Positions 5,402-63,221 are shown, counted from the stretch's first letter. The stretch: 64,000 bases of DNA from Psilocybe cubensis (GCA_017499595.2 CM039004.1:992001-1056000); one strand, 5' to 3'. The notes: generated by a model not told the origin, from the sequence alone. Program-made: numbers and translations.

Positions 5402-7334
5402 TCGTGTCAATGTAACGGGTATAAAAGAAGTCTTTCCTCACGGGCGAGGAAGACCTGGAGAGAGAAGGAACAAGCAATGCAGACGCTGGAGAGGCGTCGC
5501 CGCACTGACCGAAATTAACGTTAGATTTCATGCGACGTTCCCATCATGACTCCCCTGGTCGCCAATTTGTTCTAGGTTGGGCTTGGCATTATCGTCGGGT
5601 GCACTGTATCATGAGTGGTTTGTGAGAGTTTGTGGAGCGTTCATGCATGGAACGGATTAAGGTGTTTACACTGGATTTGACGAGTCAAAAGCTTACAAGG
5701 TTCAATGAGACATCTTCAAAATAAAGATTCCTCCGATGCTGCGAACGCTCAAAGACGTTGTGTGACTTGTGTTCCCAGCCTGTGCGTTAAACACGGAGGT
5801 TGTGTCGGATGTTTGCACTCGCTTAACACCAATTTGTATGATTGATCAACGTCCAGGAGACGTCAGGCGCCGGTTGTTAAAGCTCCCCAATAATGAAAAC
5901 AGTATCCAAGTTGAGAAAAAGAACGACTCCAATGTTTTTCAAACCTACACTCTTACTCCATCAGCTGTAGTGATACAGAGCGATGATCACAGTGTGGTAT
6001 GCCCGAAGTGAGTTTTGGGCAATGTTCAAAGAAATCTAACCTAGATTCCAAGAAAGTGCCGTAAGGCCTGTAACGAAGTGTTGGAACTTGCCCAGGTTTC
6101 ATTGTGAACGTCCAGATACCCAATTCGCCTTTATGAAAAAGGATGCGACATTAAGCAGACCAAGTAGACGGTGAGTGCAGAAGTTATGTCGATGACATCG
6201 ATGGACGCAGATGAAATAAGAATGGGCTACGCAAGACGATGATTCCACTTGCCTAGAATGCAAAACCTTAGCTTCCCGGCTTATGCCGATAGTTCAGGGC
6301 CAGCTTGACATGCCAATCAAGCAGATGTAACTTACACTGCGCGATGTTGATTCTTGGCGTTCTTTTTGCCTTCTTTTATCATTTCGATACCTATCGCTAT
6401 GTTTATGATGATCTGACTCTCAGCTTTATCCAACCACACATTAATGAAGCCTCGATTAGTGCCTATGATCTTTCCTTCCAACAAGCCTGAGTCCTCAAAA
6501 GCGTACTGACTGATGACTCTTGCTACATGACTCGGAAGTAAGTCCGGCTCTTAGCTTATTCTTATGGTATTACTTACTGAGTAGTAAATATTAGCCATGT
6601 TTATCCGGGGCCGCTTCTTGTAACAAGCCAAGAGGTATGCAGATCGTTCGGTTCACCTTCACTGTCATGAAGTTGAGATTGGAAAAAGGCAAAGAGGGCA
6701 GCCATTGTTAGCAATAAAATCATTGGAGAAGAATGACTTGAAACAACGATTTATTCAAATAGTGCGTCAAAGCTAAGGTTAATCCTGTGCAGAACACAAT
6801 TTTTATGTATGATCATTATTGGCAAGGGCGGTTAACTATATCCGCCGATCTTCTCTTGTTTTGTATCAGTGTTAACTCCAACCAAGATCAAATTTTATCG
6901 TATCAAATGTCCTGAATGAACAGTAAAATGACTTCCAGTATACACATAACTGAGAGAGATTCTATGCGGAATGGCTTGCTGAGCAATAGGAAACGTCCAG
7001 AAAGATTTGCTCTTGTTTTTACAACACTTACAAAATCATTGAAGCTGAGTACTACAGATAGAAAAATTGGGTCGCAACCGGCGGGTTCCGCGGGGAGACA
7101 TTTGACTATACCCACAAAGATAATATCAATCACCCCCTTCTGTAGAAAGACAACGCGGAAATCACTGCGCAAAAATTCTTGTCGGGCGTATACTTCCGTT
7201 TGCTGCGACTTGGAAGTTGCATCAAATAAGTCGGCGTGAAACCCACCCTTCCCTGACGATAAAAAAATCAGCTAAAAGTTGAGAACGGCACATATTCATC
7301 TTTGCAACTTTCTCACTGTCCTTCGCCACACCAG

Positions 7335-8839
7335 ATGCCTGCTCGCAGCCTTGCCCACCTATACGAGACAATTATCGTCGACGTCGGGAATGTTCTTTTC
7401 ACATGGTCATCCAAAGGGCTCAATAACGCCGTCGACTCCAAGATTTTTCGCAGGATGGTCAGCTCTCAGATATGGGGGGATCACGAAACGGGAAAACTTA
7501 CAAACGATGAAGCTTATGCAACTCTGGCTAAAGAGTTTAAAGTAAGCAAAGAGGATGTCCGTTCGGCCATGATCAGCACGATAGGGACACTCTCACCTCG
7601 ACAAGAAATGTTCGACCTGATTCGATCCCTCAAAGCTGGGCGCAAAATTTATGCCATGTCAAACATGTCTGAACATTCGTGGAACATAGTAAGAAACGCA
7701 GGAGCTAAGCAATGGGAGATTTTTGATGATGTCTTCATATCTGGTTCGGTTGGATGTCGTAAGCCCGAGACGCCATTCTATAAACATGTTCTTCAAAAAA
7801 CAGGCGCCAAACCTTCGCACACTATCTTCGTCGATGATACCTTGGAAAACTTGGCGACAGCCCGTATCTTTGGAATCAGACCCGTCCTTTACGATAATTT
7901 TCCCAGCGTCGAAAGAACCTTAAGGAATTTGTGTGGCGATCCCGTTTCCCGAGCTAGAGCATTCCTTGTCAACAATTCAAAAAAGCACCAGTCTTACGCT
8001 TCCACTGGCGATATCATTCACGAAAACTTCTGTCAACTGATGATACTAGAGGCCACCCAGGACCCTTCTCTGGTGGATTATCTTACTTACGAGGCGGAGT
8101 GGGACTTTTTCCAAGAGTTAAGCGGACAGTTTACAGACGCAGTATTTCCAGCCGACCTTGATACTACATCCATGGCGTGGACGGTCATTCCCGACATTAC
8201 AACAGATGCTATCAAGCACAGAGTAATGGATAGAATGGTTGCGGACTTTTTGGATAACGATGGTATTCCATTCACCTATTTCGATAGAAATCGTGCCAGA
8301 AGAGACCACGGAGTCTGCGTAAACGTCCTCACTCTATTCTACGCAAACGGACGAGGCCATGAGCTCACACGGGCAACCGACTATGTTTATTCACTCCTCC
8401 AGTCTGGTGCTTATCTAGAGGGATCAAGATACTACAGGTCTCCAGAAATATTTCTGTAGTAAGTCTTATCGTACCACGTATTGTGATATCTTGCTGATAA
8501 ATCATAAGCTTTGTCTCTCGTTTATTGGAGACGTCTCCTCTTCTTGAACGTCGTATGGGAGATTTATTCAAGGAATGCTGCCGTCAGCGTATCGGAACCC
8601 CTGCAGACCCTTTAGCACTGGCCATGCGTTTGCATTGTTGCACGCGCTGTGGTCTTGATGCTAGTACCGATTTTAAAAGGCTCCTCGATTTACAGCAGGT
8701 GGATGGCGGATGGGAAAGCGGAATACTCTATACATATGGATTGGTAAATATAACAGTAGGTAATAGGGGTTTAACGACTGCGATAGCACAAAGGGCAATC
8801 ATAGAGTACCTCACTAAATTTGGCCCCATTCCGAGCTAG
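7335..8839 (+). CDS. HAD-like hydrolase fused to a class II terpene cyclase domain (AstC/DrtB/AncC-type drimane or monocyclofarnesyl sesquiterpene synthase)
   Basis: Exons 7335-8458 and 8509-8839 with a 50-nt GT-AG intron give 484 aa. HAD motifs are IIVDVGNVLF, MSN, RKP and FVDDTLEN. The class II motif is PADLDTTS (DLDTT at 8154-8168) and there is a QW-like motif LLDLQQVDGGW. Confidence 0.85.
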
Positions 8840-14994: not shown

Positions 14995-16958
14995 GTTCGT
15001 CCAAGTTTCCATGTACCTCTTATTGTTAACTCGGATTTCACAGATGGAACAGCGTGTTTTGGCGCGCTAGGATAAGAAATGTTCACCTTCTTTGTTTAAA
15101 AATACATTGGAACTGAACTGGAAGCGATATGTTATGAATAACGTGGAGCCCGACATGAGAAATACCTCTTGTTCGTATTCTTGGGTCTAATCTACCGTAA
15201 ATTAGATGCAGTTTAGCGTTGGTGCAGGTGTTCGTTCGATTATTTATAATCGAAACCGCAAATAACACAATCCGAATCCCAATCGCTAACGGGTGAGCAA
15301 GGTCAGGAATCCGGCGCACGTTGGCGTTAGGTCTGGAAAACTTCGGCCATAACTTTCCTGTCGAGTGTCGCTATTACGGCTCGATGAACCGTTTGTTGTT
15401 TTCTACTTTGGACAAAATTCAACCGAAAGATAGAGCCTAATAATCTGATAAGCTTGCCGTCTGGTTAGAAGACCAGCGGTCTATGCCGCTTTTTGTTTAT
15501 ACATGAAGAACGCCGCCCAGAGCGTGCTAGAATTTTATTTCAGAGTAATATGAATGGCTGGGTGGAGTGCACACAGCGCTGTAACCGAATATTGAGAAAC
15601 CATGCTCATTACGATAAGACAAAGATCAGCATGAAATTCTCTTGGCATTTAACGGGAAGCGCTGTGAAAAAAAGATATCTAGAGAATTTACCCATCAGGC
15701 AACGGCGCCGCACGGGTTCTCAGCAAGAGTTCTCGTAAGATCGGTCAGAGTTACATCAACGAGGGTAAAATTATCTGGTCAATGAGATGCGATGTGTGCC
15801 CTCCATTATTCTGCACTGAGTAAGAAGTCACGGTGAGATGACTTGGGAAAAGAAGTAAAAATTGTGAGGAGGCAGCTGCCAAAAGGTGTTGAAATTAACG
15901 GGCAAAATATGAGCGCGACCATTCCCTAGGATTCAGATCCGCCGACGAAAGGATTACATCCTATAACCTCAAAGAGGGAAACTGTATATGACGTTCGCTT
16001 TGATGCCAGGGGAGAATAGCGATTTGATTGAGGAAACTCGCAAATTTTCGTGCCCGACGCGACGAGCTACAGAAAAGGAAAGGCGCCTTGGTCAATAGGA
16101 TCAATCGCTGACTAAGTTTGACCAAACAAAGACCGGCGAAAAACGGCGGCTTCAGCAAACGCATAATGACCGTGGAAAAAGATTACATTTCAGGTGCAGT
16201 TGATTGTTGTTTGGTCCAAAAGGTCTACATGTCGGGTTGTCGCAAATGATGATTTTACAACTTAAACTAGTACCAACTTGACCAGACATCCAGAGTTTCT
16301 ACCTGTTGGTCTCGAATTGTGCGCGCATGAAAGATTTTCGAATAATAAAACTCACATCTTGGTACTGCAGCTTGTTCTGACCATCTCCTGGTTAAATAGG
16401 AGCATAGTGCATACACTGTGATTACCGCCTAAATAACCGTCGTCGGATGTGCTTATAGAACTCTAGCCAAAGGACCATCACGCTAGTGTGGACTCCCACA
16501 TGCTGACACGTAAAGGCCTTCGAAACGGACATTTCTTTTGATCTTATTGACGAATTTTTACGACACGCAAGACCCCCGCCGTTCGGGCACAGATACTGTT
16601 TTGTGGACTTGAAAACGTGAAACCCCGACGTATCACAACCCATCTCATGGATCTGCTTCTTTCCCTTGCGGAAAATTTTGAGCCATCTGGCGTCAGCGCA
16701 GAGTTCCCTCCGCCTGCCCCTTTGCCCTGATGACATATACTTTAGGAAGGCAAGATGTTAATAACCAAATAATGCCTGCGAAAGTTTACATCGTCAATCC
16801 ATGCGAGCCAGCTTCTCAAGATCGATCGCAGTTCCCATTCTTGAATCGTCCGACCAATTACCATACCTGTCCTTCGGTTCTAGTTCTTCTGCTCGCCAAA
16901 CAATCTTTTGCGTCAAGTCATAATCGGGACTGTCGTTTCAACCACGACACTATACACT

Positions 16959-16966
16959 TATAAAAG
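16959..16966 (+). promoter_or_regulatory. Candidate TATA box of the NRPS-like gene
   Basis: TATAAAAG lies ~50 nt upstream of the ATG at 17010. Confidence 0.5.
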
Positions 16967-17009
16967 GCAAGATCAACTTACAACGGATACATCGTCCTCC
17001 TGCCCGACG

Positions 17010-20000
17010 ATGACCGTCCCGCTCGCCTTTCTAGACGTAGCAACCTTGCCAAAAGGTCTTTCTCTCGGAGAACATTTTAGCAACCTCATTTCCAAGTCCC
17101 CTGTTCATTCCTTACTTGACTGTCTCGCATCTGGGGAGACCCCTGCCATTTTTTCTCCCGACATTCACAGACCTCCTTTACTGCACTCGGACCTACGTAA
17201 TTTTGTGGCTAATTTCGCGCTACCATCTGCTGCTCGTTATGGAGGTCGTCGTGCTCTCGGCAGAAATGATCGAATCATGGTGGTTTTGCCCTCGGGTCCA
17301 GAGAATGCATTGGCGCTATTGGCATTGAGTAATTATCATTCGTGCGCCCCAGTTAACGCGAGCTGCACCAGACAGGAATTGATGGACGATATGCGCCGAC
17401 TTGGAGCCAAGGCAATTATCACCACACCTGACATCGCGAAGCACCTCGACACGAAGTTGATCCAGGATGAACTCGATTGTGAGGTTATTCTTCTCCACGC
17501 ACGCTCGACAGGTCCCGCGGGGTTGTTCGACCTTTCTATTGCAGGTGGCCACCACTCTGCTATCACTCCTCCACATCCTTCCGAGGTCCATGGTCTCGAC
17601 GACATATCACTCATTCTTCACACATCCGGTACCAGTGGCAAAAAAAAGGTTGTGCGGTATTCTCTCCGAACGTTGTTGGTTGGAACTTGGTGTGTGGTAC
17701 ATTCTTGGAACCTACTTCCAAATGACATCAATTGTATGTGATCGATCCCTTCTTTCGGTTGGTTTATGCGCTAAAGTTAACTTAAGTGAATATGATGCCG
17801 CTCTTCCATGTCGGGGGGATAGTGCGGAACTTGCTTGCCCCGGTGCTCTCTGGAGGAAGCGCGATCATGTGTGCGGGGTTTGACCCCAACGCGTTCTGGC
17901 AATATGCCTTGGAACTCAGAGCTACCTGGTGCGTGCAGTTCATATCCGTAGGCCTAACATCTACCTAATCTAGTATTTTCATGTCTCTTTAAGGTATTAC
18001 GCTGCCCCGACCGTCCACCATGCAATTCTTGCATCGAAGCCAGATACAATGGTTCCATCAAAGGATCTGCGCATACGGCTCATATGTAATGCCGCAGGTG
18101 GCCTATTGCCGTCTCTTGCGTCAGAGTTGAAAGATACCTTTGATGCTACTGTATTGCCTTCATATGGGATGACAGAGTAAGCCGAGGGCCCCTCAATCCC
18201 CTGTTGGGAAAAATTTATTAACAGTTTATTCAGATGTATGCCCATCGCCACCCCTTTGACGAATTATAAATTGGATCGCCCAGGTTGTTCTGGCATTGCA
18301 TGTGGTCCATACCTCTCTATTCGATTGCCCAATGATCTCGAACGTGAAGTTGGTCCGGGGAAAACAGGGGCTGTTTGTGTTCGCGGACTTCCGACATTCG
18401 ATGGCTATGAGATTTCACCAGACATTCAAATACCCCTTGACACGTCGACCTTCTCTAGCGAAGGGTGGTTTGACTCAGGAGATGTGGGATACATGGATGA
18501 AGACGGGTATGTCTCGGCCTTAAGAAAGTATATTCCATTCTGATAAGCAGAGCAGGTATCTATACATCACGGGACGGTCCAAGGAAATTATCAACAAGGG
18601 AGGGGAGGTCGTCTCTCCGTTCGAGGTTGAAGAAGCCATTGTGACAGCAGCCAAAGATTATGTGAAGGTTTGTCTGGTGTTTTAGATTCATTCATGCCCC
18701 AAAATCTCATGGACCTTCCAACATAGACCGCCTTAGCGTTTTCTGTCGACCACGATGTCTTGCAGGAGACTATTGGAGTGGTTATTGTGCCCGATCAGAG
18801 TCAACCGCGCGTGGGTTTACGCCAGTTGCATGATATGCTCAAGTAATTATATCCCTTTCCTTCCACTGTGGAGAGCCGTGCTAACGGCAAGAAGAGGTCA
18901 TCTACATCCTTCAAAGTGGCCTTTTGCCATAGTATTCATGGACGATGTGCCCAAAAATAGGTGCCTCGATGCTTTAACGATTTAAACTTGGATTACACTT
19001 ACAATGTCTTTTTTAGTGCTGGGAAGCCTCTCCGCATAGGGTTATCGAAACGTTTGGGGATCGGTCAACTGACTGACGACCACTCTATTCTCAGTCGACA
19101 TTTCGAAGCCGTTGCACCGCCGATTACGCAGTCAATCCATAGTCCAATCCCATGCTCCACAGTCTCAGTTGATCCTAGTGTTGTCGACAGTGCTTTCCGA
19201 AACATCCCTAAGGTTGTCGACTTCGCCGTGGAGCACCATTCCGACGGCTCACTAGATGCGTATATTTCTGTTGAGCCGACCTGGTCATTCTCGGCGAATG
19301 AGGTGAAACAGTTAGTCACTCCTCGTTTGCCCGGTTACTCGATTCCAAACCAAATTCACATCGTCAACGGTCCTCTTCTTCGAGATGGCTCTGGTTCTCA
19401 TGACTTCAGGGCAATGGAAAGGCAAGCAGCGAAATCTGCAAATATCCAGATGACGAAGCGGCAGATGCTTGTGCGGGATATTGTAGCAGAGCTCCTCAAC
19501 ATCGACCCTACCCATATCCATACTGGCTCCGACTTTTTCCTTCTTGGTGGCAACTCACTTCTCCTCGGAAAACTATCACACAGTGTCAGGCGCCAGTCTG
19601 GAATTAATATTGGAATTACTGAGCTCTTTAGCGAAAGCACTATTCATGGCATTGCTGCATTGTTGGAAGAACGGGAGGCCGCAAACGCGGATACGGATAC
19701 GGAAACAAAGGCACATGGTGACCAGGAGAAAGTCAAGGACCCTAACACTCGTAATTCGTCCACCACAGCCTTTGGAGATGATTACGATTTCGAACAAGAT
19801 GCTGAATATGCTGAAACTAAAAGGTCACGAAGTCAGGACCATCCTCTATGCCTCATTGTTCAAGCCATTCCTTTTGTCTTTTTCTATCCACTGAAGACAG
19901 CCTGGACCTGTAAGTCTGCCGTTATTGACTTCTGGTTTATGCCGTGTTCTCAATTTTTTGTAGGGTCTATGCTAATTTTTATGTTGTCCTATTTGGCACC

Positions 20001-22879
20001 GTTGATTAACGGGACATATTGGGAACGAATGGTGGCATTGTTGACTTCAATCCTGGTTGCGAGAGTTACAGCACGTATCGTCTGTCCTCTTACTTCCATC
20101 CTTTTCAAGTGGATTGTCATCGGTCGGTACAAACCTGGAACCTATCAGACGTAAGGTCGCTGTTTCTTTGAATGCGTAGACAATGCTAAATGTTTTCTAG
20201 TTGGTCGACCTACTACCTCCGGTGGTGGATTGTCAACCAAAGCATCAGGTGAATAATTTATCCCATTCATAATAAGTGGTATACGTTATTTATATGCTTT
20301 GAATCTCTAGAATATCTGGAAGGGGAATTTTCGCTCTACATCCATCATTGACAACATTGTACTATCGTCTGCTAGGCGCGAAGATTGGAAAGGATGTTCA
20401 TATTGACGAAGACACTAAATTATTCGAGTGCGATCTCCTTGATCTTCGAGACGGCTGCCGCCTTCAGACATCCACCATACGCGGCTTTGCTGTTGAGAGA
20501 AATGGTTACTTCACCCTTGCACCTGTCACGATCGGACGCAAAGCTTTTGTTAACCAGTACACACACATTGCGCCAGGCTCTCTTATTGATGATGGCTCGG
20601 TATACGGGCCTCACGCTTCTTCATACGACGACCCCTCTCCCAGATCTTATGCCGCTTATAACGGCACTCTGTTGGCCAAGCCATCGCTAATCTTGCAGAT
20701 GCTTATCGCGTGGCCCATAATTCTGATCGTTGTATTCCTGTCATGTAAGCCATCCAATCTTTCGATCAACGTCATGCAACTTATTTTGGTATAGATGTAC
20801 CCTGGATGGCTGCTATTTTTGTAATGGTCAACCAAACGCATATCACTCGTGCAGGCCTGAACGACTTGGAATCAGTCATTTATTGGTTTGCAACTCCTAA
20901 ACGAGTGTTATTCCATGCCTTGTCCCGGATTGTTCGAGCCCTCCTGAGACCCATTATCAGGGTTGCACTTGGTATAATGGTTAAACGCTTGTTAGGCCTT
21001 AACTCCGAGACTACATCCTCCCGCGATTCTCAGTTGGTGCTTCTAAGGCGATATATAAACTCCATTTTATTGTCCCAATCGGAGCTCAAGGACGCATTTT
21101 CAATTGTTGGCACGCATTACGAAGTGGTTTCTGTAAGAATATTCAAATTCTTAAGTAATCATTTTCTGACCGCCACCTTTCGCTTTTCATAGATGGTATA
21201 CAGAGCAATGGGTGCCAAAATCGGGAAACGCATTTATTGGCCTGGCTCAGGCATTGCATGCATGGACCCGGAATTGCTGGAAATTGGTGATGATGTTGTT
21301 TTTGGTTCACGATCTGCGCTCGTAACGACGGATCGTCTTGGATCTGGGAAAATTGTGATCGAAAGTGGAGGTATATATTCGTGCCCGCCTATTTTTAATT
21401 TTATGTCCACTTCTGATTGCATCCGCCTTTTCTAGCAATGGTAGCCGACCGAGTAGTTTTATTGCCCGGAACGAAACTAGGGCGTCGGGCAGTGATGGGC
21501 TCCGGTTCTCTAGGAAAGCGCAACGCGGAATACCTCCCTGGTTCAACGTGGATGGGCAATGGTTAGTTGTCAAGCTTTATTGAGATATATATCGCTAATG
21601 CTGAAGGTACAATAGACAAGGGCGAAGCTGTATGTCTCGTCAAAGGCTCCAAAGAAGCAGGCAGTGGGGACACTTCCACACCTTTTGGACGGGCATTCTA
21701 CCAGAAAAAGGCAAATTACTTCGTTTTCCCATATACGATGATTCTTGCTATAAGTGTCATTATGACCGCCGTGTCAGCAGCGTACTGGTCCATCAGCGCC
21801 GTAGGGGCAGCGCAAGTGCTCAAGGATGCTCGAATTCATCGTTTCCACGTCTTCCGACCTCGCTGGTACTTGTTCGGGGTCATCTATGGAGTCATTTCTG
21901 TCTGTTTTATTGTCATTCTCACGGTTCAGGGGTTATTCTCTATCATATGGGTTATTGTAGCCAAGTGGCTCATCATCGGGAGACGTCGCCCTGGAAGGTA
22001 CGATTGGGATCAAAGCAGCTACTGCCAACGATGGCAACTTCACTTGGTCGTTTCTCGCCTCATGTACAAAGGATATGGCTATGGTGGTGTCCTTGCGCCT
22101 CTAGCGGGTTCTGCCTACATTGTATGGTATTTCCGGGCATTAGGTGCCGTAATTGGCGACAATTGTGCAATTTGGGCTGGCGGACGCCCAGGTCTAATGA
22201 CAGAGCCCGACCTCGTCGAGGTAAGCGATCCTTAATACATCTACATGTCGACGACGGACTATCTGTTAACACTGTCACTTTGTCAGCTTGGCGATGAGGT
22301 AAATTTGGATGACTGTTCTGTCGTGGCGCATATCAATTCTCGAGGAAATTTCGCACTGAATAGACTCAAGATCGGAAACCAGTGAGGCTTTTTCTTCGGA
22401 TCTTTAAATTTTCCTTCTGGTCTTCTAACACCCTGTCATCAAGGTGTGCTATGCGGTCGGGCTCGCGGCTACTATCCGGGGCCTCGATGGAGGACAGCAG
22501 TATGCTCTGCGAGCACACTCTTCTTACGTCCGGGGACGTCGCCGACGCCGGTGTAGCGTACTACGGCTGGCCAGCGAAGAGGCTGGAGGACGCAGCGGAT
22601 TCAAATGCAGGGGCTGTAAAACCTGCATTCCTGACATGCCCCATATGCCGGCGTTTTCCCAAAGACAGCGCAGTTAGTGGATGTGGGCATCTCTTCTGTC
22701 ACAGGTGAGCCTTGTTCGACGTTCTGAAAACCCCGATTACGGCCACTGAGGATGGATTTAGTTGCATTTCTCGATCGCTATCAAGAAGAAAATACTGCCC
22801 TGTATGCTTCGAACCATCTACGCTCAACCAGCTGAAGAGAGTGCACCTATCTTTCGGGGCAGAGACACCTCAGCATTGA
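17010..22879 (+). CDS. Membrane-bound NRPS-like protein: adenylation domain, carrier (T) domain, three TM/left-handed beta-helix units (Pls/polymalate-synthetase-like) and a C-terminal C3HC4 RING finger
   Basis: About 17 GT-AG introns, ~1,600 aa. A-domain motifs are LHTSGTSGKKK, MPLFHVGG, SYGMTE, FDSGDVG, ITGRSKE and PKNSAGK. The T motif is DFFLLGGNSL (19531-19560). The three repeated units read YRLLGAKIG, YRAMGAKIG and FRALGAVIG, with KWxxIGR motifs and hydrophobic helices. The RING is CPIC-x11-CGHLFCHSC-x10-CPVC. Confidence 0.85.
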
Positions 22880-25667: not shown

Positions 25668-28664
<2,997 letters not shown>

Positions 28665-38586: not shown

Positions 38587-39416
38587 AGTGGACAAAATGT
38601 GCTTTGTAAATGCGGATAAGTTGATTTTGATGCATCATTCCCTTTTTGTTGCCTCCAGCTAGTCTGAACAAGCTCTGGTCACTAATTGATGTTGAATTTA
38701 ATGAGAGCGATGAAGTTCATTGCTTCGGCTTGCGTGATAATATGTCATCCCGAAGGATGATCAATCTAGTCAACCGCAACATAGTCGAGGAGTTTCCAAG
38801 TCAGCAAAAACAAGTGACCAATATTTCTTCTTCGACTCCCATATACAACCTATGACATTAATAAACGAAAAGATGCAGCGGGCGCTGCCTATTGATATCA
38901 TGGACACAATCATCGACGCAGTCGGGGAACAAGTTTTGACCTCGAGTACATCCCACGAAGCTCAAGCATACTGGCAAACACTCCTATCATTTCATGCCAC
39001 ATCAGTAGAATGTCATCGCCAATCCATGGCACATATCCTTAAGCGTGTCTCAATAACGCTCACTGGCTATGGGGGGTGTAGGAATCGCCTCACAGAATTG
39101 TGTGAGCTTATGAACACTTCGCTTTCCTTGGGAATGGGAGATATTGCACGGCACATCAAAGACGTCGAGTTGGTTTTTGAATCATCAATTCGACCAGTAC
39201 AGGGGGCCTTACTTGGGCTAATGGAGTGCTCACCAGTTGAACACTTGATGAATGACGAAATCGTTTCCGACTTCCTCACCCGATTACATGGGCCAGTATA
39301 CGGAGTTGAAAACCTCTCATTAGTCGTTCATTCTAAGGAGACTCAAGGGTTCTTTCCCAGAAAGAAGGGGATACACTGGTCAACTCTATCCGCCAGATTT
39401 CAAACAGCCTTCCGAC

Positions 39417-39809
39417 TGTTGGAATACGGACTTGACATTCACTCACTCTTTTATTTCCACCTTTCTTTTCCTTTCCATTTTTATACCATAACTTTCCTCA
39501 TTCGACATTCGGGACATTGGGCCCGAAAGCCCCTGTTCATTCATGAATCCAGTAGTCCTCCTTCCTATTGCGTTCAACGCATCACCTTCCATATCCCTCA
39601 TCAACTTCTGTAGCTACGAGAGGCTCACATATACGGACCAGTTCTGTTCTTAGTACCTCAGTCTTTCTTCCCTTCGACTGAGGTACATTTACTTTTCCAT
39701 TGTTCGTACAGAGTAGCTAACGTAGTCTACAGGCTTACCGTGTCATTAGGTTAACAATATAGTCTTTCTTCCCTTCGACTGAGGCTTACCGTGTCATTAG
39801 TTTTCTTCA
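39417..39809 (+). repeat. 5' LTR (393 bp)
   Basis: TGTTGGAATACGG...TTTTCTTCA; no difference from 44629-45021 was seen by eye. Confidence 0.97.
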
Positions 39810-39821
39810 GGTTATGGGCCC
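39810..39821 (+). other. Primer-binding site of the half-tRNA-iMet type
   Basis: GGTTATGGGCCC directly abuts the 5' LTR and resembles the copia/Ty5-type PBS complementary to the tRNA-iMet anticodon region. Confidence 0.8.
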
Positions 39822-39940
39822 CGAACGCGCCTGAATCAAACAAGACACCATCGGACTCAGTTATCAGACTCACCTAGCATATTTTCAAGAGATCTCAATT
39901 CTCTCTAGCATCAAACCCAGACTCACTCTTATTTCTTAAA

Positions 39941-42900
39941 ATGTCGGCCATGGCAGGGGATGTCCCAAATACTGCCCATACGACCATCAATAACATCACG
40001 ATGAGCACAAAAATCACCCCGGCAAATGCAAAAGTCGATCATATTGTCAATCTTGAAGGAACATCAAACTTTATTGCTTGGAGAGACGACATGCGGAATA
40101 TTTTGAAAGATTGTGGAGTCTATGGGCATATAGAGGGATCCGAGAAGAGGACTGCGCGATATCCAGTCTCGCCAAAACCCACAGAACCCGCAGACGACGC
40201 TTCAGACGATGTGATTGCAGCCTATCGGAAATGGTGGAGCGATGATGACAGTGCGAAAACACTGATAACCAGAAAGGTGTCGGCACTTGTTAAATCGAAC
40301 TTGAATGCAGGAGAAGATGTAACCGCGCGAATGGTATGGAACCAGATAATGACCAGATACGCGCGTGTAGACATCAACGCTCAGTTCGCCATTAAAGAGA
40401 GGTTAGCGTCAATCAAGCTCAAGGATTATACCGAGATCGAGAAGTACCTTGGCGAATTTCGCAGTGGCAGAGAACGACTTAAGGATATGGGTGTTGAATA
40501 CCCTGAAGGGGACATTATTCATCATATCATCCGGGGCTTACCATCGTCGGGCGCCTGGCCAAACTTCAAGCAGCTTATGATCCAACTCTACCAGGACACA
40601 CTGGACCGCGACAAAGCAGCAACGGATGAAGGGCGCAATCCATCAGCACCAAATACCGCTTTAGAAAGGATCACAGCACGACTTACCATCGAATGTCAAC
40701 GTCTTGAGGCAGAGGCCGGGTCAAAGCGACATCCACCAGGATCCGAGTACTCCAACTTTTCAAACGACAATCGTCCCATTGCTAAACATGTCAATAATCC
40801 AAATGGCGTGAGATGCACAAACTGTCGTAATCGCTCTCACGATAAAGATCATTGTTGGGCAAAAGGTGGTGGGATGGAAGGTCAAGGCCCAGCTTATCGG
40901 GCGGCGCTTGCAGCTAAAAAGACAGAGTCGGCGTCTGTTGCAATTGAAGCTGGTTCCCTGGAAAGTGGAGAAATCTCTTGTGCACTTATTGAAGAATTTG
41001 TTGATGACGACGTACAATCACCTATTGCGGCATCCGCAAACACAAGATCCTTTCTGTCGACGTCAATCCTGTTGGACTCTGGTGCAACATCCCATATAAT
41101 CAAATCGCGTTCATTATTCCACACATATTCCGAGAGTGATGCTCGAAATGTCACAACAGCGAACCTTGGGACTTTGAGAACTCAAGGAGGAGGGACGTGC
41201 ATACTTAATGTCACTTACAGGGGAAAGTCCATCAAACTCAGGCTAAACAACTGCCTTCATGCTCCCTCCGCCGCAGTCAATCTGCTCTCCGTCAGTCGTC
41301 TTTTCATCGCGGGCATTGGTTGCAACTTTCAACCCGAAACGGGCATTCACCTTTCTAAAAAGGGTGTCGCGTTTGCTTCCGCCTCGCTAATCAATGGCCT
41401 ATTTGCAATGGACCATACTACATTTGTTCCTACAAACAATGATTTTGCTGCTGAGCGTGCAATGTATGTGAAAGTACCGGAGACACTTCACCTTCAACAT
41501 CTTCGGTTGGGGCACCCTGGTGAACAGGCGACGCGTATGCTTGTCCAGAGAGTCATGAAAATCCAAGTTAAGGACGAGAACATCAAATGTGAGCCTTGCA
41601 TTATTGCCAAGCATACGGCTACTCCACATCCGCCAAGATCACTTGGCCAGCGCGCTTATCAACCACTTGAACTTATTGTGGCCGATACCTGCGGTCCTTT
41701 CCCTGTGCAAACGCCTCATCACAAAGAATTCTTTGTTGCTTTCCGTTGTTCTGGTATGAAAGTTAATAACATACAACTTACTGCAGACAAAACGGCCGAT
41801 ACAATGCTGGAAGCCTTTAAGATTGTTCAGGCCCGCTGGGAGACACGCACTGGGTTCAAAATTCAGAGGTTTCGATGTGATGGTGGACCAGAGTGGAAAG
41901 GATCTTTTGCAGCTTACCTACTGGAGCAAGGTATCGAACAAGAGGTCACGCCGGCACGTGAACATTGGATGAACGGGGAAATAGAACGCTTCATGCGTAC
42001 AGTCCAAGGTCGAATGCTAGCCATGTTAACAACTGCTCAACTACCTTTGACTTACTGGGGTGAAGCCGCGTTGACTGCCTCGTATCTTCTCAACATCACA
42101 TCCACCGACGAACACGGCATCACTCCCTTCGAAAATATGTACCACAGGCCGCCCAATTTGTTGCATCTTCGTGTGTGGGGATGTCGGGCATTTGTTCATG
42201 TCCCGGAAGAGTAGCAATCAAAGTTGGGCGCGAAATCTGTTCAATGCCGGTTCATGGGTTATCCTCCAGGCGGAAAAGGCTACAGGTTTCGTCATCTTGA
42301 AAGTGGACATTTTTTTGACTCCTCAAACGCTATGTTCGATGAGAACATGCCGTCCGTTTCTGCTGTTAATAATGCTTCTTCTCCAATAGATTATTCATCC
42401 TTACCCTTTTATTCTGAAATTTTGCATTCTTCTGATTCTACCTCTTCTTCTTCTGTTCCGAATTTTGTTTCAAATTCAGTTCCAAATCTTGTTTCTACCC
42501 CTTCCGACCTAGATGCACCCGAGCTACTTCGCTCTTCTTCTTACCCTTCCTCTTCCTCTATTTCTTCTGTAGATATTGAAGTCGTTCCTCCCACAACTCC
42601 TGTCCAGTCATCCTCTCAAAATATTCCCCAAACCCCTGCCCCTCGTTGTGTCTTACCACCGCCTCGCTCTTCCTCCAGAGAACGTCATCCATCATCTCGC
42701 GGACTGCTTTACAATCAGCTTCGAGAGACTGAAAAGGCAAAAAGCGATTCTATTATTGCATCTCGCAGGGCCACAAGTGCTGAACGGTCCGCGACGGTTC
42801 CACCATCCAACGAGCAAGGGGGCGAGTCAAATCCGTTTACATCTCTCTGCTCCGTTGGATTGCTCAATTCTTCATCTCCCTCATATGACATCAGCTCGGA

Positions 42901-44621
42901 TACCTCGTTCGTGTCCCTCGATGTTGAAGATTATCTTGCAAGGGACAAAGAAGCCTTTTTTGAAGCCCTTCTACTCTCAGTCAGGAGCGAGCACAGACGA
43001 AACCCCAATTCTCCAAATTACGATCTCAAAATCCCACCTGCAAATTATGTCGAGGCAATGCAACGTCCAGATGCAGATCAATGGAGAAATGTCATCCAGA
43101 AAGAACTCGACATGTTCAAATCAATGAATGTATACGTTGACGAAGAACTTCCACTAGGCGAACATACGATTGGGTGTCGTTGGGTCTTTGAGTTTAAAAT
43201 CGACGATAATGGACAACTGATATACAAAGCCAGACTTGTTGCGCAGGGCTTTTCTCAAAAGTATCTCATCGATTATCACGAAACTTTCGCACCTGTGTCA
43301 AAATCTGTCAGCACCCGCGCCATAGTGGTACATGCAACACTGAACGGATGGCATATCGAATGCTTTGACGCCACGAGAGCCTTCCTGTGGGGGGATTTAA
43401 CGGAGGTGATTTACATGAAATGTCCTTCGGGGTATTCTTCACCATTCCCGAAGGGTGTCTGGAGACTAAAGAAGTCACTGTATGGGTTGAAACAGGCAAG
43501 TAATGTGTGGTATGTCCTCATCCGTTCAACGCTGCAGAACATTGGCTTCAAACGGTCGGAAAAGGATCACGCCACCTTTATTTTTGAAGGAGTATGGAAT
43601 GGGGAACAGGTCAAGTGCTGGCTATGTATTCATGTCGATGACGGTTTAGGGGCGTCCAATTCCAAGATGTTTCTTGATCACACCAAATCCGAAGTCAACA
43701 AGCGTTTTGGCATCAAGGATCTTGGTCCATTGCGATCTTACCTAGGAGTGCAGTACGAGCGGAACATGGATACTCGTGAACTCTGGATTCATCAAACTCC
43801 CTACATTGAGAGCGTCCTCGATGAATACGGTCTCCTCAATTGTAGTCCCGTTTCAACACCACTCGATGCCAACAACGTATTTGGCCGTGACGACGACGTC
43901 TTCCCAGAGATTCCAGACATTAAAATCACCTTCCAGCGTCTCATCGGCTCTCTCCTTTTTATTCAACGACACTCCCCGCCCTGACATTTTGATAGCCGTC
44001 CTGCTTTTGTCTCAACACGCATCAAATCCCCAACCAAAGCACTTCGCTACAGCCAAACGTGTACTTTGATACTTGAGTGGTACTCGCAATTATCGCTTAT
44101 ACTACGGTGGAAAAATGGCATCGCACCGCTTACAGGGTTACTCTGATGCTGACTGGGCTGGCAATAAGGACTCGCGTGCATCCATTTCAGGTTTTGTATG
44201 GATGATTGCTGGAGGGCCGCTGAGCTGGTCTTCTAAAACTCAGACCTGCATAGCCACAAGCTCCACGGAATCTGAATACATTGCGCTAACGCGAACTGTA
44301 CAGGAAGGGTTGTGGTTATCATCCTCGCTTTTGTGTCTTCGCATCGATTGCCCAAATCCGCTAGTGGTCGCCACCAACAACGAGGGAGCCAAATCTCTGT
44401 GCGAAAACGATTCATCCCATTCGAAAGCAAAACATATCGACATCAGATATCACTTCATTCGATCCCACATTGAATCAAAATCTTTCAGCATCCTTCACAT
44501 CCCAGGAAAAGAAAATCCGGCAGACATACTCACCAAATCTCTTCAACGAGTCAAGTTTCTCGAAGGTGTCACCAGACTTGGACTTATTGATCCTAAAGCG
44601 GTTAAGGAGGCGATGCGTTGA
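39941..44621 (+). pseudogene. Copia gag-pol polyprotein, interrupted
   Basis: Contains the zinc knuckle CTNCRNRSHDKDHC, protease LLDSGATSH, integrase D(ADTCGP)-D(RCDGGPE)-E(NGEIER), RT YKARLVAQG/KSLYGLKQ/HVDD and RNase H YSDADW/SSTESEY/KHIDIRYH. Lesions are TAG 42212-42214, a +1 frameshift in the C-run 43974-43977 and TGA 44067-44069. Confidence 0.93.
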
Positions 44622-44628
44622 GGGGGCG
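44620..44628 (+). other. Polypurine tract
   Basis: GAGGGGGCG lies immediately before the 3' LTR. Confidence 0.75.
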
Positions 44629-45021
44629 TGTTGGAATACGGACTTGACATTCACTCACTCTTTTATTTCCACCTTTCTTTTCCTTTCCATTTTTATACCA
44701 TAACTTTCCTCATTCGACATTCGGGACATTGGGCCCGAAAGCCCCTGTTCATTCATGAATCCAGTAGTCCTCCTTCCTATTGCGTTCAACGCATCACCTT
44801 CCATATCCCTCATCAACTTCTGTAGCTACGAGAGGCTCACATATACGGACCAGTTCTGTTCTTAGTACCTCAGTCTTTCTTCCCTTCGACTGAGGTACAT
44901 TTACTTTTCCATTGTTCGTACAGAGTAGCTAACGTAGTCTACAGGCTTACCGTGTCATTAGGTTAACAATATAGTCTTTCTTCCCTTCGACTGAGGCTTA
45001 CCGTGTCATTAGTTTTCTTCA
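44629..45021 (+). repeat. 3' LTR (393 bp)
   Basis: Direct repeat of 39417-39809, followed by the TSD CCGAC. Confidence 0.97.
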
Positions 45022-45295
45022 CCGACATGCTATTGAATCTCCATGTCTGACATATCTGGGCGTCAGAAATATCTTGGACCTTCCTTATGAGATTCTTCGT
45101 GGAACAAAAGTAAAAGTTTTGAGTTGGAACCTGGATGATAATATACTGCGGAGCCACCCTCGGGATCCGGTAGATTGGTCTCCATTTTCAGCTTCTTCAA
45201 GTTATTTGCCCTACCCGGATATCGAATACCTTGATACAAATTGCTTGCACACGCTACCTGAAAATCCCGCTCATAAGTCCATAGAAGGGTTGAAA

Positions 45296-61050: not shown

Positions 61051-63221
61051 ATGCCTATTTCTTCAAAGGTTCAACAGTACAAAGGAGACGAAGCCCTTTT
61101 GAACATTCTTAGCGATCTCTCATGGAAAATACTTTGCAAAAGACCTTTCCGATGGCAATTAATAGCTGCCGAGGCAATTTTGCAAGGAAAAGATGTGGTT
61201 CTTGATGTTGGCACGGGTTGCGGGAAATCACTGTGCTTCTTGCTGCCACTGATGCTATGTAAATCTGATATGTCAATCACCGTATCACCATTGACTGCTC
61301 TGATGATTGACCAAGTACGTATCAAATTTTGTAATAGGAGAATTAATATGTTATTAATAATTCATTGGACACCTACTAGACATCAAGCGCTGTGTTAAAC
61401 ACTGTAGCTGTTTGTGCACAGACAGTTTCTCAAGTCGGAAAAGATCAGCTGTATTCCGACATTCTTAGAGGGGTGTTTCAACACATTATGGTCTCGCCAG
61501 AGATTGCAGCTTCACCTGAGTTTCACAAATTTGTCTGGTCGAAGCCAGAAATCACAGACCATCTTCGGTCTGTAAACATTGATGAAGCCCACTGTATTAC
61601 CATGTGGGGTGGTAGCTTTCGGCCAGATTATGGCAACTTGGGCATCTTGCGAGGTCGAATTCCTGTCAATGTACCCATTTTAGCGGCATCGGCAACATTA
61701 CCAGACCATGTTCTCAGCGATGTCTTAGGAAAGCTACGTTTGGCAAATCCAAAAATGGTCAGGGTTAGTAACGCTCGACCAAACATTGCATTATCTGTCC
61801 GTACCATGGAGTTTGACAATGCGTCAAAGGCTGATTTGCGGTTTTTAATTCCACAAAACGCAAATAACTCGGACGACATACCTGTTACTCTTGTATATTG
61901 CAATCAGCGTGCAACAACAGAGGACTGTGCTGATCGACTTCGAGATTGGGCAGAAGAGCAAAGCATACCTCGCAATACCATTGCTTTCTACCATTCTTGC
62001 GTTGGAAATGACCGTAAACGCGAAATTGAACAGCTGCTTTCTGATAATAAAATCCGGATTGTCATCTGTACAGAGGCATTAGGAATGGTGCGTCTGTATG
62101 ATTTAATTTTACCAAATCTAATAACATACCTCAGGGATGCGACCTCCGCAATATTGCTCGAGTTGTCCTATGGGGGTTGCCTGAAACCTTCTGTTCTCTT
62201 GTACAGAGAATTGGTCGTGCAGGAAGAGACCTCAATACAGATGCTGAGGCAATACTAATTGTTAATCCAGGAATAGCAAAGGGTGAAATTACTGAGGATG
62301 CATTTAACGATACTATTGTCATGGCGGCTGCTGAAGGCGAGGCATTAAATCGGCCTATTAGTGAACAAGAACTGGATCGCTCTGTCGAAGCACTAGATGA
62401 AGAAGGAGTCCGAATTGCAAATGCAGCTGAGTCAGATAACGAAGACGCTGATGCTACGTTTGCGATGACACCTTCTGTACGGCACTCCAAAGGCAAACGG
62501 AAAGTGCAAACAAAAACAAACACTCACCTGCAAGAAACTCGGGCCTTGCTAAATTTTGTGATCACAAAAGAGTGCCGCCGAAAGATCTGGGATGCATTCT
62601 TTAATAATGCAAGCAAACGTGAGTGTCAAGTTTCTTTTATTCTAATATTGTATAGTACTTACCTGAACATTAGTTCAGCTTATATATCAGGAAACGACAA
62701 CGTATAACCCCACTACACATACTTCACGGTGCTGTGACAACTGTCAGCCTCATTTATTTCCATTGGACAATATAGTGCGACATCAACTCACCAGCTTAAA
62801 GCGTGGACGCAAGAAAAAAATGCCAGAAGAAGAACAGAACTATATTCGAAATAAACTCTTCAAGTTCCGAGAGCATAATCTGATGGACGCGGTTTACAGC
62901 AACCTATCAAGCTTTTCAAGTAGTATGATTATCTCCGATGAGGTAATTAATAAGATTGCAAGCTGTGGCGAGCTAATCAGAGATTATTCTCACCTCCGTC
63001 AAATTGTGCGATGGGGATTTGGCCATGATTCAAGCATTGATGGACCTAACAAGTGGGGCTTAATGCTTATGGAGGAACTAGAGAATATCAACAATGCTCT
63101 TGAGAACAGGCGAGTAGAAAGTTCAGAAAAGGAGAAGTCGAAGGACTCAACAAGTGTGCCTGCACCGTATGCTTCGATATCATTTGCAGATATATTGACA
63201 CCAGAAAACTTTTGTGATTAG
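61051..63221 (+). CDS. Compact RecQ-like SF2 helicase (probably transposon-borne)
   Basis: Four exons (introns 61315-61379, 62088-62134 and ~62619-62674). Motifs are GTGCGKS, SPLTAL, IDEAHC, ASATL, FYHS, CTEALGMGCD and QRIGRAGR. The RecQ Zn ligands are CRR..CCDNC. Confidence 0.9.

Follow-up and report, generated by a model that had tools for sequence, protein, structure and literature searches.

A predicted leader intron and an exact intronless copy of its flanking exons within the LTR of a Copia-type retrotransposon from a mushroom fungus

Retroelements are copied from RNA, and their progeny therefore lack any intron that had been spliced out by the time the RNA was packaged. In mushroom-forming fungi, genes without introns are poorly expressed, and Lugones et al. 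reportedly found in 1999 that efficient expression of transgenes in this fungal group depends on an intron. Drosophila copia is another Ty1/Copia element with splicing, besides those considered below.

Several described systems come close to the arrangement reported here. Foamy viruses carry the major splice donor in R. U1 bound at the 5′ LTR prevents use of the poly(A) site there, and in the 3′ copy a stretch of 13 U3 nucleotides (-13 to -1) changes the fold so that the donor is masked (PMC3694450). In the split-intron retroviral vectors of Ismail et al. 2000 (reviewed in PMC3182074), an intron is rebuilt via LTR copying. The plant Copia element BARE has two TATA boxes and separate translated and replicated RNAs, only one class of which has R (PMC3735527), and in EVD and other plant Copia elements introns of the coding region are spliced for gag expression (PMC5580714). 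These accounts, and the comparisons made with them below, follow excerpts of the papers cited.

Here we describe a Ty1/Copia element with a complete predicted intron in its LTR and, 11 nucleotides further on, a copy of the two flanking exons joined without it. No description of a complete LTR intron together with its own processed copy was found in the main texts of open-access papers and bioRxiv preprints. Like BARE and EVD, it would belong to the Copia-type elements that rely on host splicing and have to exclude spliced RNA from replication. However, introns of the BARE/EVD type lie in the coding region and give a gag-only mRNA, and none is reported, in the excerpts used, inside an LTR or with a genomic copy of its spliced form. 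The joined copy also resembles a processed retrocopy, as it would be an exact cDNA, free of the intron, of a template that contained one; unlike the products of retroprocessing, source and processed copy stand 11 nucleotides apart in one LTR and are replicated together in a mobile element.

The element occupies positions 39417-45021 of the window (the whole stretch of DNA analysed, 64,000 nucleotides) and is bounded by two identical 393-bp LTRs with TG..CA ends and by a target-site duplication (TSD), CCGAC. The LTR extent is corrected here to 39417-39809, 393 bp. The 5′ and 3′ LTRs are identical at 393/393 positions by blastn, with 0 differences across 392 positions in a direct comparison. The features of the element are as follows.

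39412-39416, no strand: TSD CCGAC, left copy; the same 5 bases stand at the right end, and a single CCGAC is found in run X7 (see below)
45022-45026, no strand: TSD CCGAC, right copy, read from the sequence
39417-39809, + strand: 5′ LTR, 393 bp, TG..CA, identical to 44629-45021
39630-39633, + strand: TATA-like motif of putative function, 30 nt upstream of the presumed start
39653-39663, + strand: 5′ arm of an inverted repeat, GTACCTCAGTC, 11 bp, containing the presumed transcription start (TSS) A39660
39660-39682, + strand: E1, putative first exon, 23 nt, with A39660 in an Inr-like TCAGTCT
39676-39686, + strand: 3′ arm of the inverted repeat, GACTGAGGTAC, spanning splice-donor positions -7 to +4
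39683-39732, + strand: predicted 50-nt intron, with GTACAT donor, GCTAAC branch 12 nt before its end and CAG acceptor
39733-39749, + strand: E2, 17 nt, from sequence comparison
39750-39760, + strand: spacer GTTAACAATAT, 11 nt, placed by its position between E2 and the processed copy
39761-39800, + strand: processed copy, E1 joined to E2 without the intron, 40/40 identical
39801-39809, + strand: LTR end (U5 end), TTTTCTTCA, between the processed copy and the PBS
39810-39827, + strand: primer-binding site (PBS), placed by its position directly 3′ of the LTR
39941-44621, + strand: gag-pol of Ty1/Copia type, interrupted, from Pfam matches
44620-44628, + strand: polypurine tract GAGGGGGCG, abutting the 3′ LTR, assigned by position and composition
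44629-45021, + strand: 3′ LTR, identical to the 5′ LTR, with its parts at +5212
44865-44875 and 44888-44898, + strand: hairpin arms of the 3′ LTR, twin of the 5′ LTR stem
44895-44944 and 44973-45012, + strand: intron and processed copy of the 3′ LTR, respectively, as +5212 copies

Pfam matches to Retrotran_gag_2, Pol_BBD, gag_pre-integrs and SH3_retrovirus were found upstream of RVT_2, in keeping with the order gag, protease, integrase, reverse transcriptase and with Copia-type families; the integrase core family failed to reach an E value of 0.001 in this copy and was present in the precomputed results of some homologues. The gag-pol frame is broken by an in-frame TAG (42212-42214), a frameshift at about 43865-43981 and an in-frame TGA (44067-44069), and the window copy is a defective, non-autonomous one despite its undiverged LTRs. 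Neither the gag-pol translation nor the Pfam matches reveal an intron within the coding region. Among named homologues, the nearest to the gag-integrase part come from Psilocybe, with 66% and 77% identity; the host is therefore an Agaricales mushroom fungus, in line with the Agaricomycete host that the initial annotation had guessed. We take the PBS to be complementary to the anticodon arm of initiator tRNA-Met. No tRNA gene was found within the 64-kb window, and no further copies of the element were found elsewhere in it. About 20 candidate host introns, heuristic and unverified, were picked out in the window, with lengths of ~48-60 nt and, in noisy hexamer counts, enrichment of GTTAGT and GTAAGT.

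The layout of the LTR had been given in the initial annotation, and all of its coordinates (TATA, TCAGTC with A39660, E1, intron, E2, spacer and copy) hold when read from the sequence. The intronless E1E2 at 39761-39800 is exact (40/40) and is present in both LTRs at +5212, and the only part missing from it is the 50-nt segment 39683-39732. A deletion of this segment can be placed in four equivalent registers, owing to an AGG microhomology, and one of the four is GT..AG. As a measure of chance, 400,000 random 50-nt segments were drawn from this window and scored in any equivalent register. GT..AG occurred in 0.55% of them and GT..YAG in 0.23%; GT..YAG with a CTRAY 8-30 nt from the 3′ end occurred in 57 (0.014%, ~1 in 7,000), and GT..YAG with CTAAC at the right distance in four (0.001%). 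The segment has the characters of a U2-type intron, namely GT..AG, a CTRAY branch 8-30 nt from a YAG acceptor and a short fungal length, with a donor (GTACAT) that departs at +5 from the presumed GTRNGT consensus. Because a chance match is so rare, the missing 50 nt bear the signature of a spliced intron (GT..CTAAC..CAG), far above chance as far as the canonical look noticed before is concerned, and the downstream copy has the form of the corresponding cDNA.

The limits of the processed copy are equally precise. On the left the copy begins at the A of TCAGTCT, 30 nt downstream of the TATA motif, and on the right it runs on into the LTR end and the PBS; these are the limits expected of a complete minus-strand strong-stop cDNA of the spliced RNA. 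If the copy did arise as such a cDNA, the 5′ end of the RNA can be read from the base at which it begins. Transcription would then start at A39660, a position to which the TATA motif at -30 and the Inr-like TCAGTCT point as well as the left edge of the copy. The polarity also fits, the unspliced copy lying towards U3 and the spliced one towards the PBS. This is the polarity to be expected, since the PBS-side part would come from the 5′ end of a spliced RNA and the rest from an unspliced 3′ end. No source of the spacer GTTAACAATAT was found in the window at up to 1 mismatch. Taken together with the AG before it, the LTR end TTTTCTTCA is similar to the opening 11 nt of E1 apart from one missing base, and a match of this kind to the E1 start (edit distance up to 1) occurs at only three unrelated sites in the window on both strands. 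Judged by its resemblance to E1, the LTR end may offer a mis-annealing site, which would leave the spacer unaccounted for. As a poly(A) signal, AATATA at 39756-39761 is a speculative candidate.

The composite LTR was also found in other sequencing runs. In run X7, which has the same species label and comes from another study, a 34-kb contig joins 39416 directly to the 3′ flank through one CCGAC, and therefore the site of the window is empty in that strain. The same run has a 366-nt contig equal to 39445-39810 with 0 differences, at 1.8 times the flank depth. It is joined upstream to two different sequences and downstream to one; GCATC is shared by one of the upstream junctions and the downstream junction, so that X7 has a solo LTR with its own TSD; no internal element sequence was found in X7. 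Run X6, of another species label, has the full element, with a 370-nt contig equal to 39441-39810 (0 differences) and a 751-nt contig corresponding to 39781-39990. Raw Illumina reads of X12 cover 39425-39799 evenly (~49-76 per bin versus ~32 in the flank); the mean depth of the LTR is ~59, ~1.9 times that of the flank, and that of the intron is 56-58. No joints were found in the X12 LTR reads at the listing threshold of at least 5% of reads, and no intronless or expanded LTR variants were seen in X12, which has the same downstream junction as X7 and a depth of only 2-9 over the internal leader. Run X10 (another species label, 0.10 of words) gave no sequence placed on the window.

The composite LTR is thus present, unchanged, at at least three insertion loci, that is, the window plus two or more others, and reverse transcription has therefore reproduced it unchanged several times. 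This faithful copying carries low statistical weight because only about three loci were observed. Absence of the duplication from sister copies, as after a one-off strand-transfer accident, would according to the initial annotation have spoken against its reading; the same LTR is present at two or more other loci in other strains. The family is very young and low-copy. An assembly artefact is ruled out by the independent X6 and X7 contigs and the even X12 reads, and a multicopy introner by the X12 depth over the intron, which equals that of the LTR.

Reads of X12 also provided a view of related families. Block 39797-39836, consisting of the LTR end and the PBS, has ~3 times the LTR depth in X12 and is common to other Copia families. 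In the foreign X12 reads, the 30 nt upstream of this block fall into three consensus types that each show homology to the intronless E1E2; in these three related families the ..CTGAG|A.. junction is contiguous and PBS-proximal. Since all three consensus types have it, the intronless PBS-proximal block is the arrangement conserved across this set of Copia families. No simple ancestor of the form ‘U3-E1-intron-E2-LTR end’ was found among the three related families detected in X12; therefore the intron-bearing copy could be an add-on, or the relatives may share the tandem design. A 61-nt contig of X6, with 8 differences over 39630-39689, hints at a diverged sister in which E1 is followed by the intron start. 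A metagenome scan with the 19-nt LTR-end/PBS motif gave eight loci and no relative with an E1E2-like block; six of the eight are evidently unrelated coding DNA, and two (L004 and L007) are perhaps other PBS sites. Viral contigs, searched with protein-guided scans (a single protein and a 16-sequence alignment), gave no relatives.

A further feature, missed in the initial annotation, is an 11-bp perfect inverted repeat, GTACCTCAGTC and GACTGAGGTAC, with a 12-nt loop. The 5′ arm consists of the last 7 nt of U3 plus +1 to +4, and the 3′ arm of donor positions -7 to +4. Besides its 3′-LTR twin, it is the sole perfect stem of at least 10 bp (loop 3-20) in the 64-kb window. With U3 present, 39640-39700 is predicted to fold at -18.5 kcal/mol (z -6.3; none of 200 shuffles did as well), and an RNA starting at 39660 at -3.7 kcal/mol (z -0.16); shifting the RNA 5′ end from 39653 to 39660 costs ~16 kcal/mol of predicted stability. 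The predicted mean unpaired probability of donor positions -3 to +6 is 0.20-0.22 for RNA starts up to 39653 and 0.44-0.52 for starts at 39659-39664 (~0.47 at 39660), an accessibility contrast of about two-fold, with the donor in the 5′ context still about half paired in the predicted ensemble. The second, processed copy has neither of the two complementary flanks. By these predictions, the stem can form only in 3′-LTR RNA, where the last 7 U3 nt are transcribed, and the hairpin would supply the asymmetry between 5′ and 3′ ends that is needed if an intron is to be kept. It could instead be a palindrome that acts at the DNA level.

Foamy viruses offer points of comparison. As there, the donor would lie inside R, here 23 nt after the presumed start, and upstream of the likely poly(A) site, and a few U3 nucleotides, transcribed in the 3′ copy only, would alter the fold of the donor; in the present case these are -7 to -1, by prediction. 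The expected outcome is also that described for foamy viruses (PMC3694450, in excerpt), a donor open to use in the 5′ copy and hidden in the 3′ copy. Unlike in foamy viruses, a whole 50-nt intron with donor, branch and acceptor lies inside the LTR, not the donor alone; the element is a fungal one of Ty1/Copia type, and the structure is a simple 11-bp hairpin, again by prediction. Foamy viruses, as far as the excerpted account goes, have no processed spliced-leader copy in the LTR, such as is present here.

Considering these data together, we favour a genuine leader intron that is gated by RNA structure, accompanied by a heritable fossil of spliced-leader cDNA, and we put the probability of this reading at about one half. 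The layout of the LTR, the chance estimates for it, its occurrence at several insertion loci and the context dependence of the hairpin, as predicted, are what the data show; the transcription start, the splicing, its gating, the poly(A) site and the origin event are inferred, as follows. RNA initiated in the 5′ LTR would miss the greater part of the 5′ arm, which would leave the donor open and let the leader intron be spliced; in addition, U1 may be retained on this RNA and the poly(A) site of the LTR kept from use. Read-through RNA of the 3′ LTR would contain the whole arm, the donor would be closed and the intron retained, and polyadenylation would proceed. The leader intron would be the sole intron of an otherwise intron-free 5-kb mRNA. 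The 40-mer plus TTTTCTTCA next to the PBS would represent the reverse-transcribed spliced leader, that is, a complete minus-strand strong-stop cDNA. In an aberrant first-strand transfer, this cDNA may have landed downstream of R and not on E1, with 11 nt of filler; the adjacency of a spliced cDNA part to an unspliced 3′-end part is what makes the junction look like the footprint of such a misplaced transfer. The composite LTR would then have become part of R-U5.

How the composite LTR fares in later cycles would depend on the splicing of the template. If the leader is unspliced, the copy would be faithful. If only the first intron is spliced, a full-length strong-stop cDNA would either prime on the 40-nt copy, adding an extra unit, or on E1, losing the intron; an early transfer within the PBS-proximal block would still give a faithful copy. 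A faithful copy would also result if both this intron and a second one, proposed at 39750-39800, were spliced. The three or more integrations would have been copied faithfully, most simply from unspliced-leader RNAs or by early strand transfer. Since replication from unspliced-leader RNA also copies the architecture faithfully, the duplicate need not be functional. The intron may also carry a cost, if it is a weak one, because stalled spliceosomes on transposon RNAs trigger RNAi in Cryptococcus (Dumesic 2013, as cited in an excerpt of PMC6643885).

The interpretation put forward in the initial annotation gives the duplicate a role. It regards the spliced, translation-competent RNA as the template itself: its strong-stop cDNA would anneal to the pre-spliced copy as a working R, and the intron copy at the 3′ end would be inherited unspliced, like U3, so that each cycle rebuilds the intron-containing LTR and the duplicate is an adaptation. 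The intron signature, the strong-stop limits, the polarity and the sister loci all stand on its side, as do the topology and the 40/40 identity of the copy, the unchanged architecture at three or more loci and the lack of an intronless or expanded variant in X12. The hairpin, as modelled, would protect the 3′ intron copy and sequester both ends of the upstream E1, and therefore the cDNA would be steered to the unstructured 40-nt copy. Efficient transgene expression in Agaricomycetes is reported to depend on an intron (PMC4935854, PMC7017817 and PMC8379801, in excerpt). The split-intron retroviral vectors provide an engineered precedent (PMC3182074, in excerpt): as in this cycle, splice signals from the 3′ end reappear in the 5′ LTR through reverse transcription, and the integrated copy has an intron though the 5′ end of the transferred RNA need not. 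Those vectors differ in that they are engineered, with only the donor moved and the acceptor outside the LTR, that their purpose is removal of the packaging signal, and that the excerpt describes no pre-spliced duplicate serving as homology.

The weak part of that interpretation is the second intron, 39750-39800. This segment belongs to a repeat with a 51-nt period, for which 20 registers are equivalent and one is GT..AG, a result expected by chance in 6.9% of cases. Neither its GTTAAC donor nor its CTGAG branch agrees well with the presumed consensus, GTRNGT and CTRAY. The cycle needs this second splice, however, as the first splice alone would lead to the added unit or the lost intron described above. 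It also requires a poly(A) site after 39800, no long-term conservation is visible in so young and low-copy a family, and replication from unspliced-leader RNA accounts for the same data. Because the second intron is weak, we rank a real leader intron with a fossil above the regenerating cycle, which we consider doubtful though possible; that the 40-nt copy now serves as a working R is likewise a tentative proposal.

It is unlikely that the element uses two starts and two RNA pools in the manner of BARE, with 39660 giving the translated, intron-bearing mRNA and 39761 the genomic RNA. The 40-nt copy would then be R, and the intron-bearing copy therefore simply part of U3. In its favour, AGTC also opens the duplicate, the intronless block by the PBS is conserved in the related families as an R-U5-like part, and BARE separates its translated and replicated RNAs by different starts within the LTR, with two TATA boxes (PMC3735527, in excerpt). 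However, there is no TATA ~30 nt upstream of 39761, and the ATAT before 39761 fits the Inr pattern less well than the bases before 39660. An intron in U3 would still need protection in the genomic RNA, which the hairpin could give.

More improbable still is a gain of the intron, in which the contiguous E1E2 is ancestral, R was tandem-duplicated and the upstream copy later took up the 50-nt intron, for instance through reverse splicing into RNA fixed by the element's own reverse transcription. Such a history would suit the contiguous block by the PBS in all three related X12 families and the GAG|G junction, which resembles a proto-splice site. Against this, the X12 intron depth of 56-58 is that of the rest of the LTR, which leaves no donor copy at 85% identity or more in the X12 genome, and no similar sequence was found elsewhere in the window. 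The first 4 intron nucleotides lie in the 11-bp stem with U3, pointing to co-adaptation and not to a fresh arrival, and the loss of an intron via spliced RNA is far easier for a retroelement. Finally, a slippage indel between tandem copies, made by a polymerase or reverse transcriptase at AGG and carrying splice signals by coincidence, could use the 3-nt AGG microhomology flanking the segment and is nevertheless rejected, as the intron signature is too rare among the random segments scored above and 50 nt lies within the length range of the short, unverified candidate host introns.

On the reading that we favour, a leader intron with a fossil of its cDNA, the LTR would be a DNA record that the leader intron was spliced, that the spliced RNA was reverse-transcribed and where the RNA 5′ end lay, to the base. 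The hairpin gives a testable rule by which two identical LTR copies of a donor may be treated differently, as in foamy viruses, and by analogy suggests convergent solutions in very distant retroelements.

The arrangement could also show how a retroelement keeps an intron. That it is in fact kept by the combination of an LTR intron, a U3-dependent donor mask and a pre-spliced landing site by the PBS is a possibility we hold only tentatively. If so, a spliced, well-expressed RNA would still yield intron-bearing progeny, and the element would be a natural counterpart of split-intron vectors, evolved where mRNAs need introns. Were the duplicate functional, it would represent a new replication strategy, with a design that may be of use for intron-carrying retro-vectors and Agaricomycete expression cassettes. 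Even as a passive scar, it would be an uncommon natural trace of a first-strand transfer that went astray between the ends of spliced and unspliced RNAs.

The Copia element is flanked on both sides by a 5-bp target duplication, CCGAC, and lies among multi-exon host genes, at the following positions in the window:

39412-39416 and 45022-45026, CCGAC target duplication, left and right flank of the element
7263-8459, neighbouring host gene, multi-exon
16884-22300, neighbouring host gene, multi-exon
25953-28583, minus strand, neighbouring host gene, multi-exon
61380-62258, neighbouring host gene, multi-exon

In a 34-kb contig from X7, a sequencing run of another study under the same species label, the left flank runs directly into the right flank with a single CCGAC; therefore the site is empty in X7. 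The insertion is polymorphic between runs. The internal part of the element is also missing from the raw Illumina reads of run X12. A 290-codon open frame (38741-39613) passes from host DNA into the LTR, and the element may have landed within or beside a host gene; a Pfam search returned no family for the host portion of this frame. The host neighbours include an AMP-binding and PP-binding (NRPS-like) gene, an AAA ATPase, a DEAD-box helicase and a HAD hydrolase. In these neighbouring genes, candidate introns are about 48-60 nt long, and some of them have putative donors that depart from the consensus, for example GTTAAA or GTTTGC.

The two LTRs share 100% identity despite lesions that break the gag-pol frame, namely an in-frame TAG (42212-42214), a frameshift at about 43865-43981 and an in-frame TGA (44067-44069). 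This copy arose either through mobilisation of a defective RNA in trans or from a master copy in which the lesions were already present. The PBS (39810-39827) presumably pairs with the anticodon arm of initiator tRNA-Met instead of with a tRNA 3′ end; if this pairing holds, priming would be by a half-tRNA, as in Drosophila copia. No tRNA gene was found in the 64-kb window. An upstream ORF of six codons (39813-39833), its ATG lying within the PBS, ends at TGA and precedes the gag start (39941) in all leader forms.

The block covering the LTR end and PBS (39797-39836) is common to at least three other Copia families, with an X12 depth of about 190 reads versus about 59 for the LTR; in these families the 30 nt upstream of it show homology to the E1E2 block that lacks the intron, the processed 40-nt copy of the inferred exons. 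The first 11 nt (39660-39670) of E1, the inferred first exon, recur minus one base at 39799-39808, where AG is followed by TTTTCTTC, the last LTR bases; just three unrelated sites in the window match the E1 start as closely. This likeness may represent a partial third copy or a site at which strong-stop cDNA mis-anneals.
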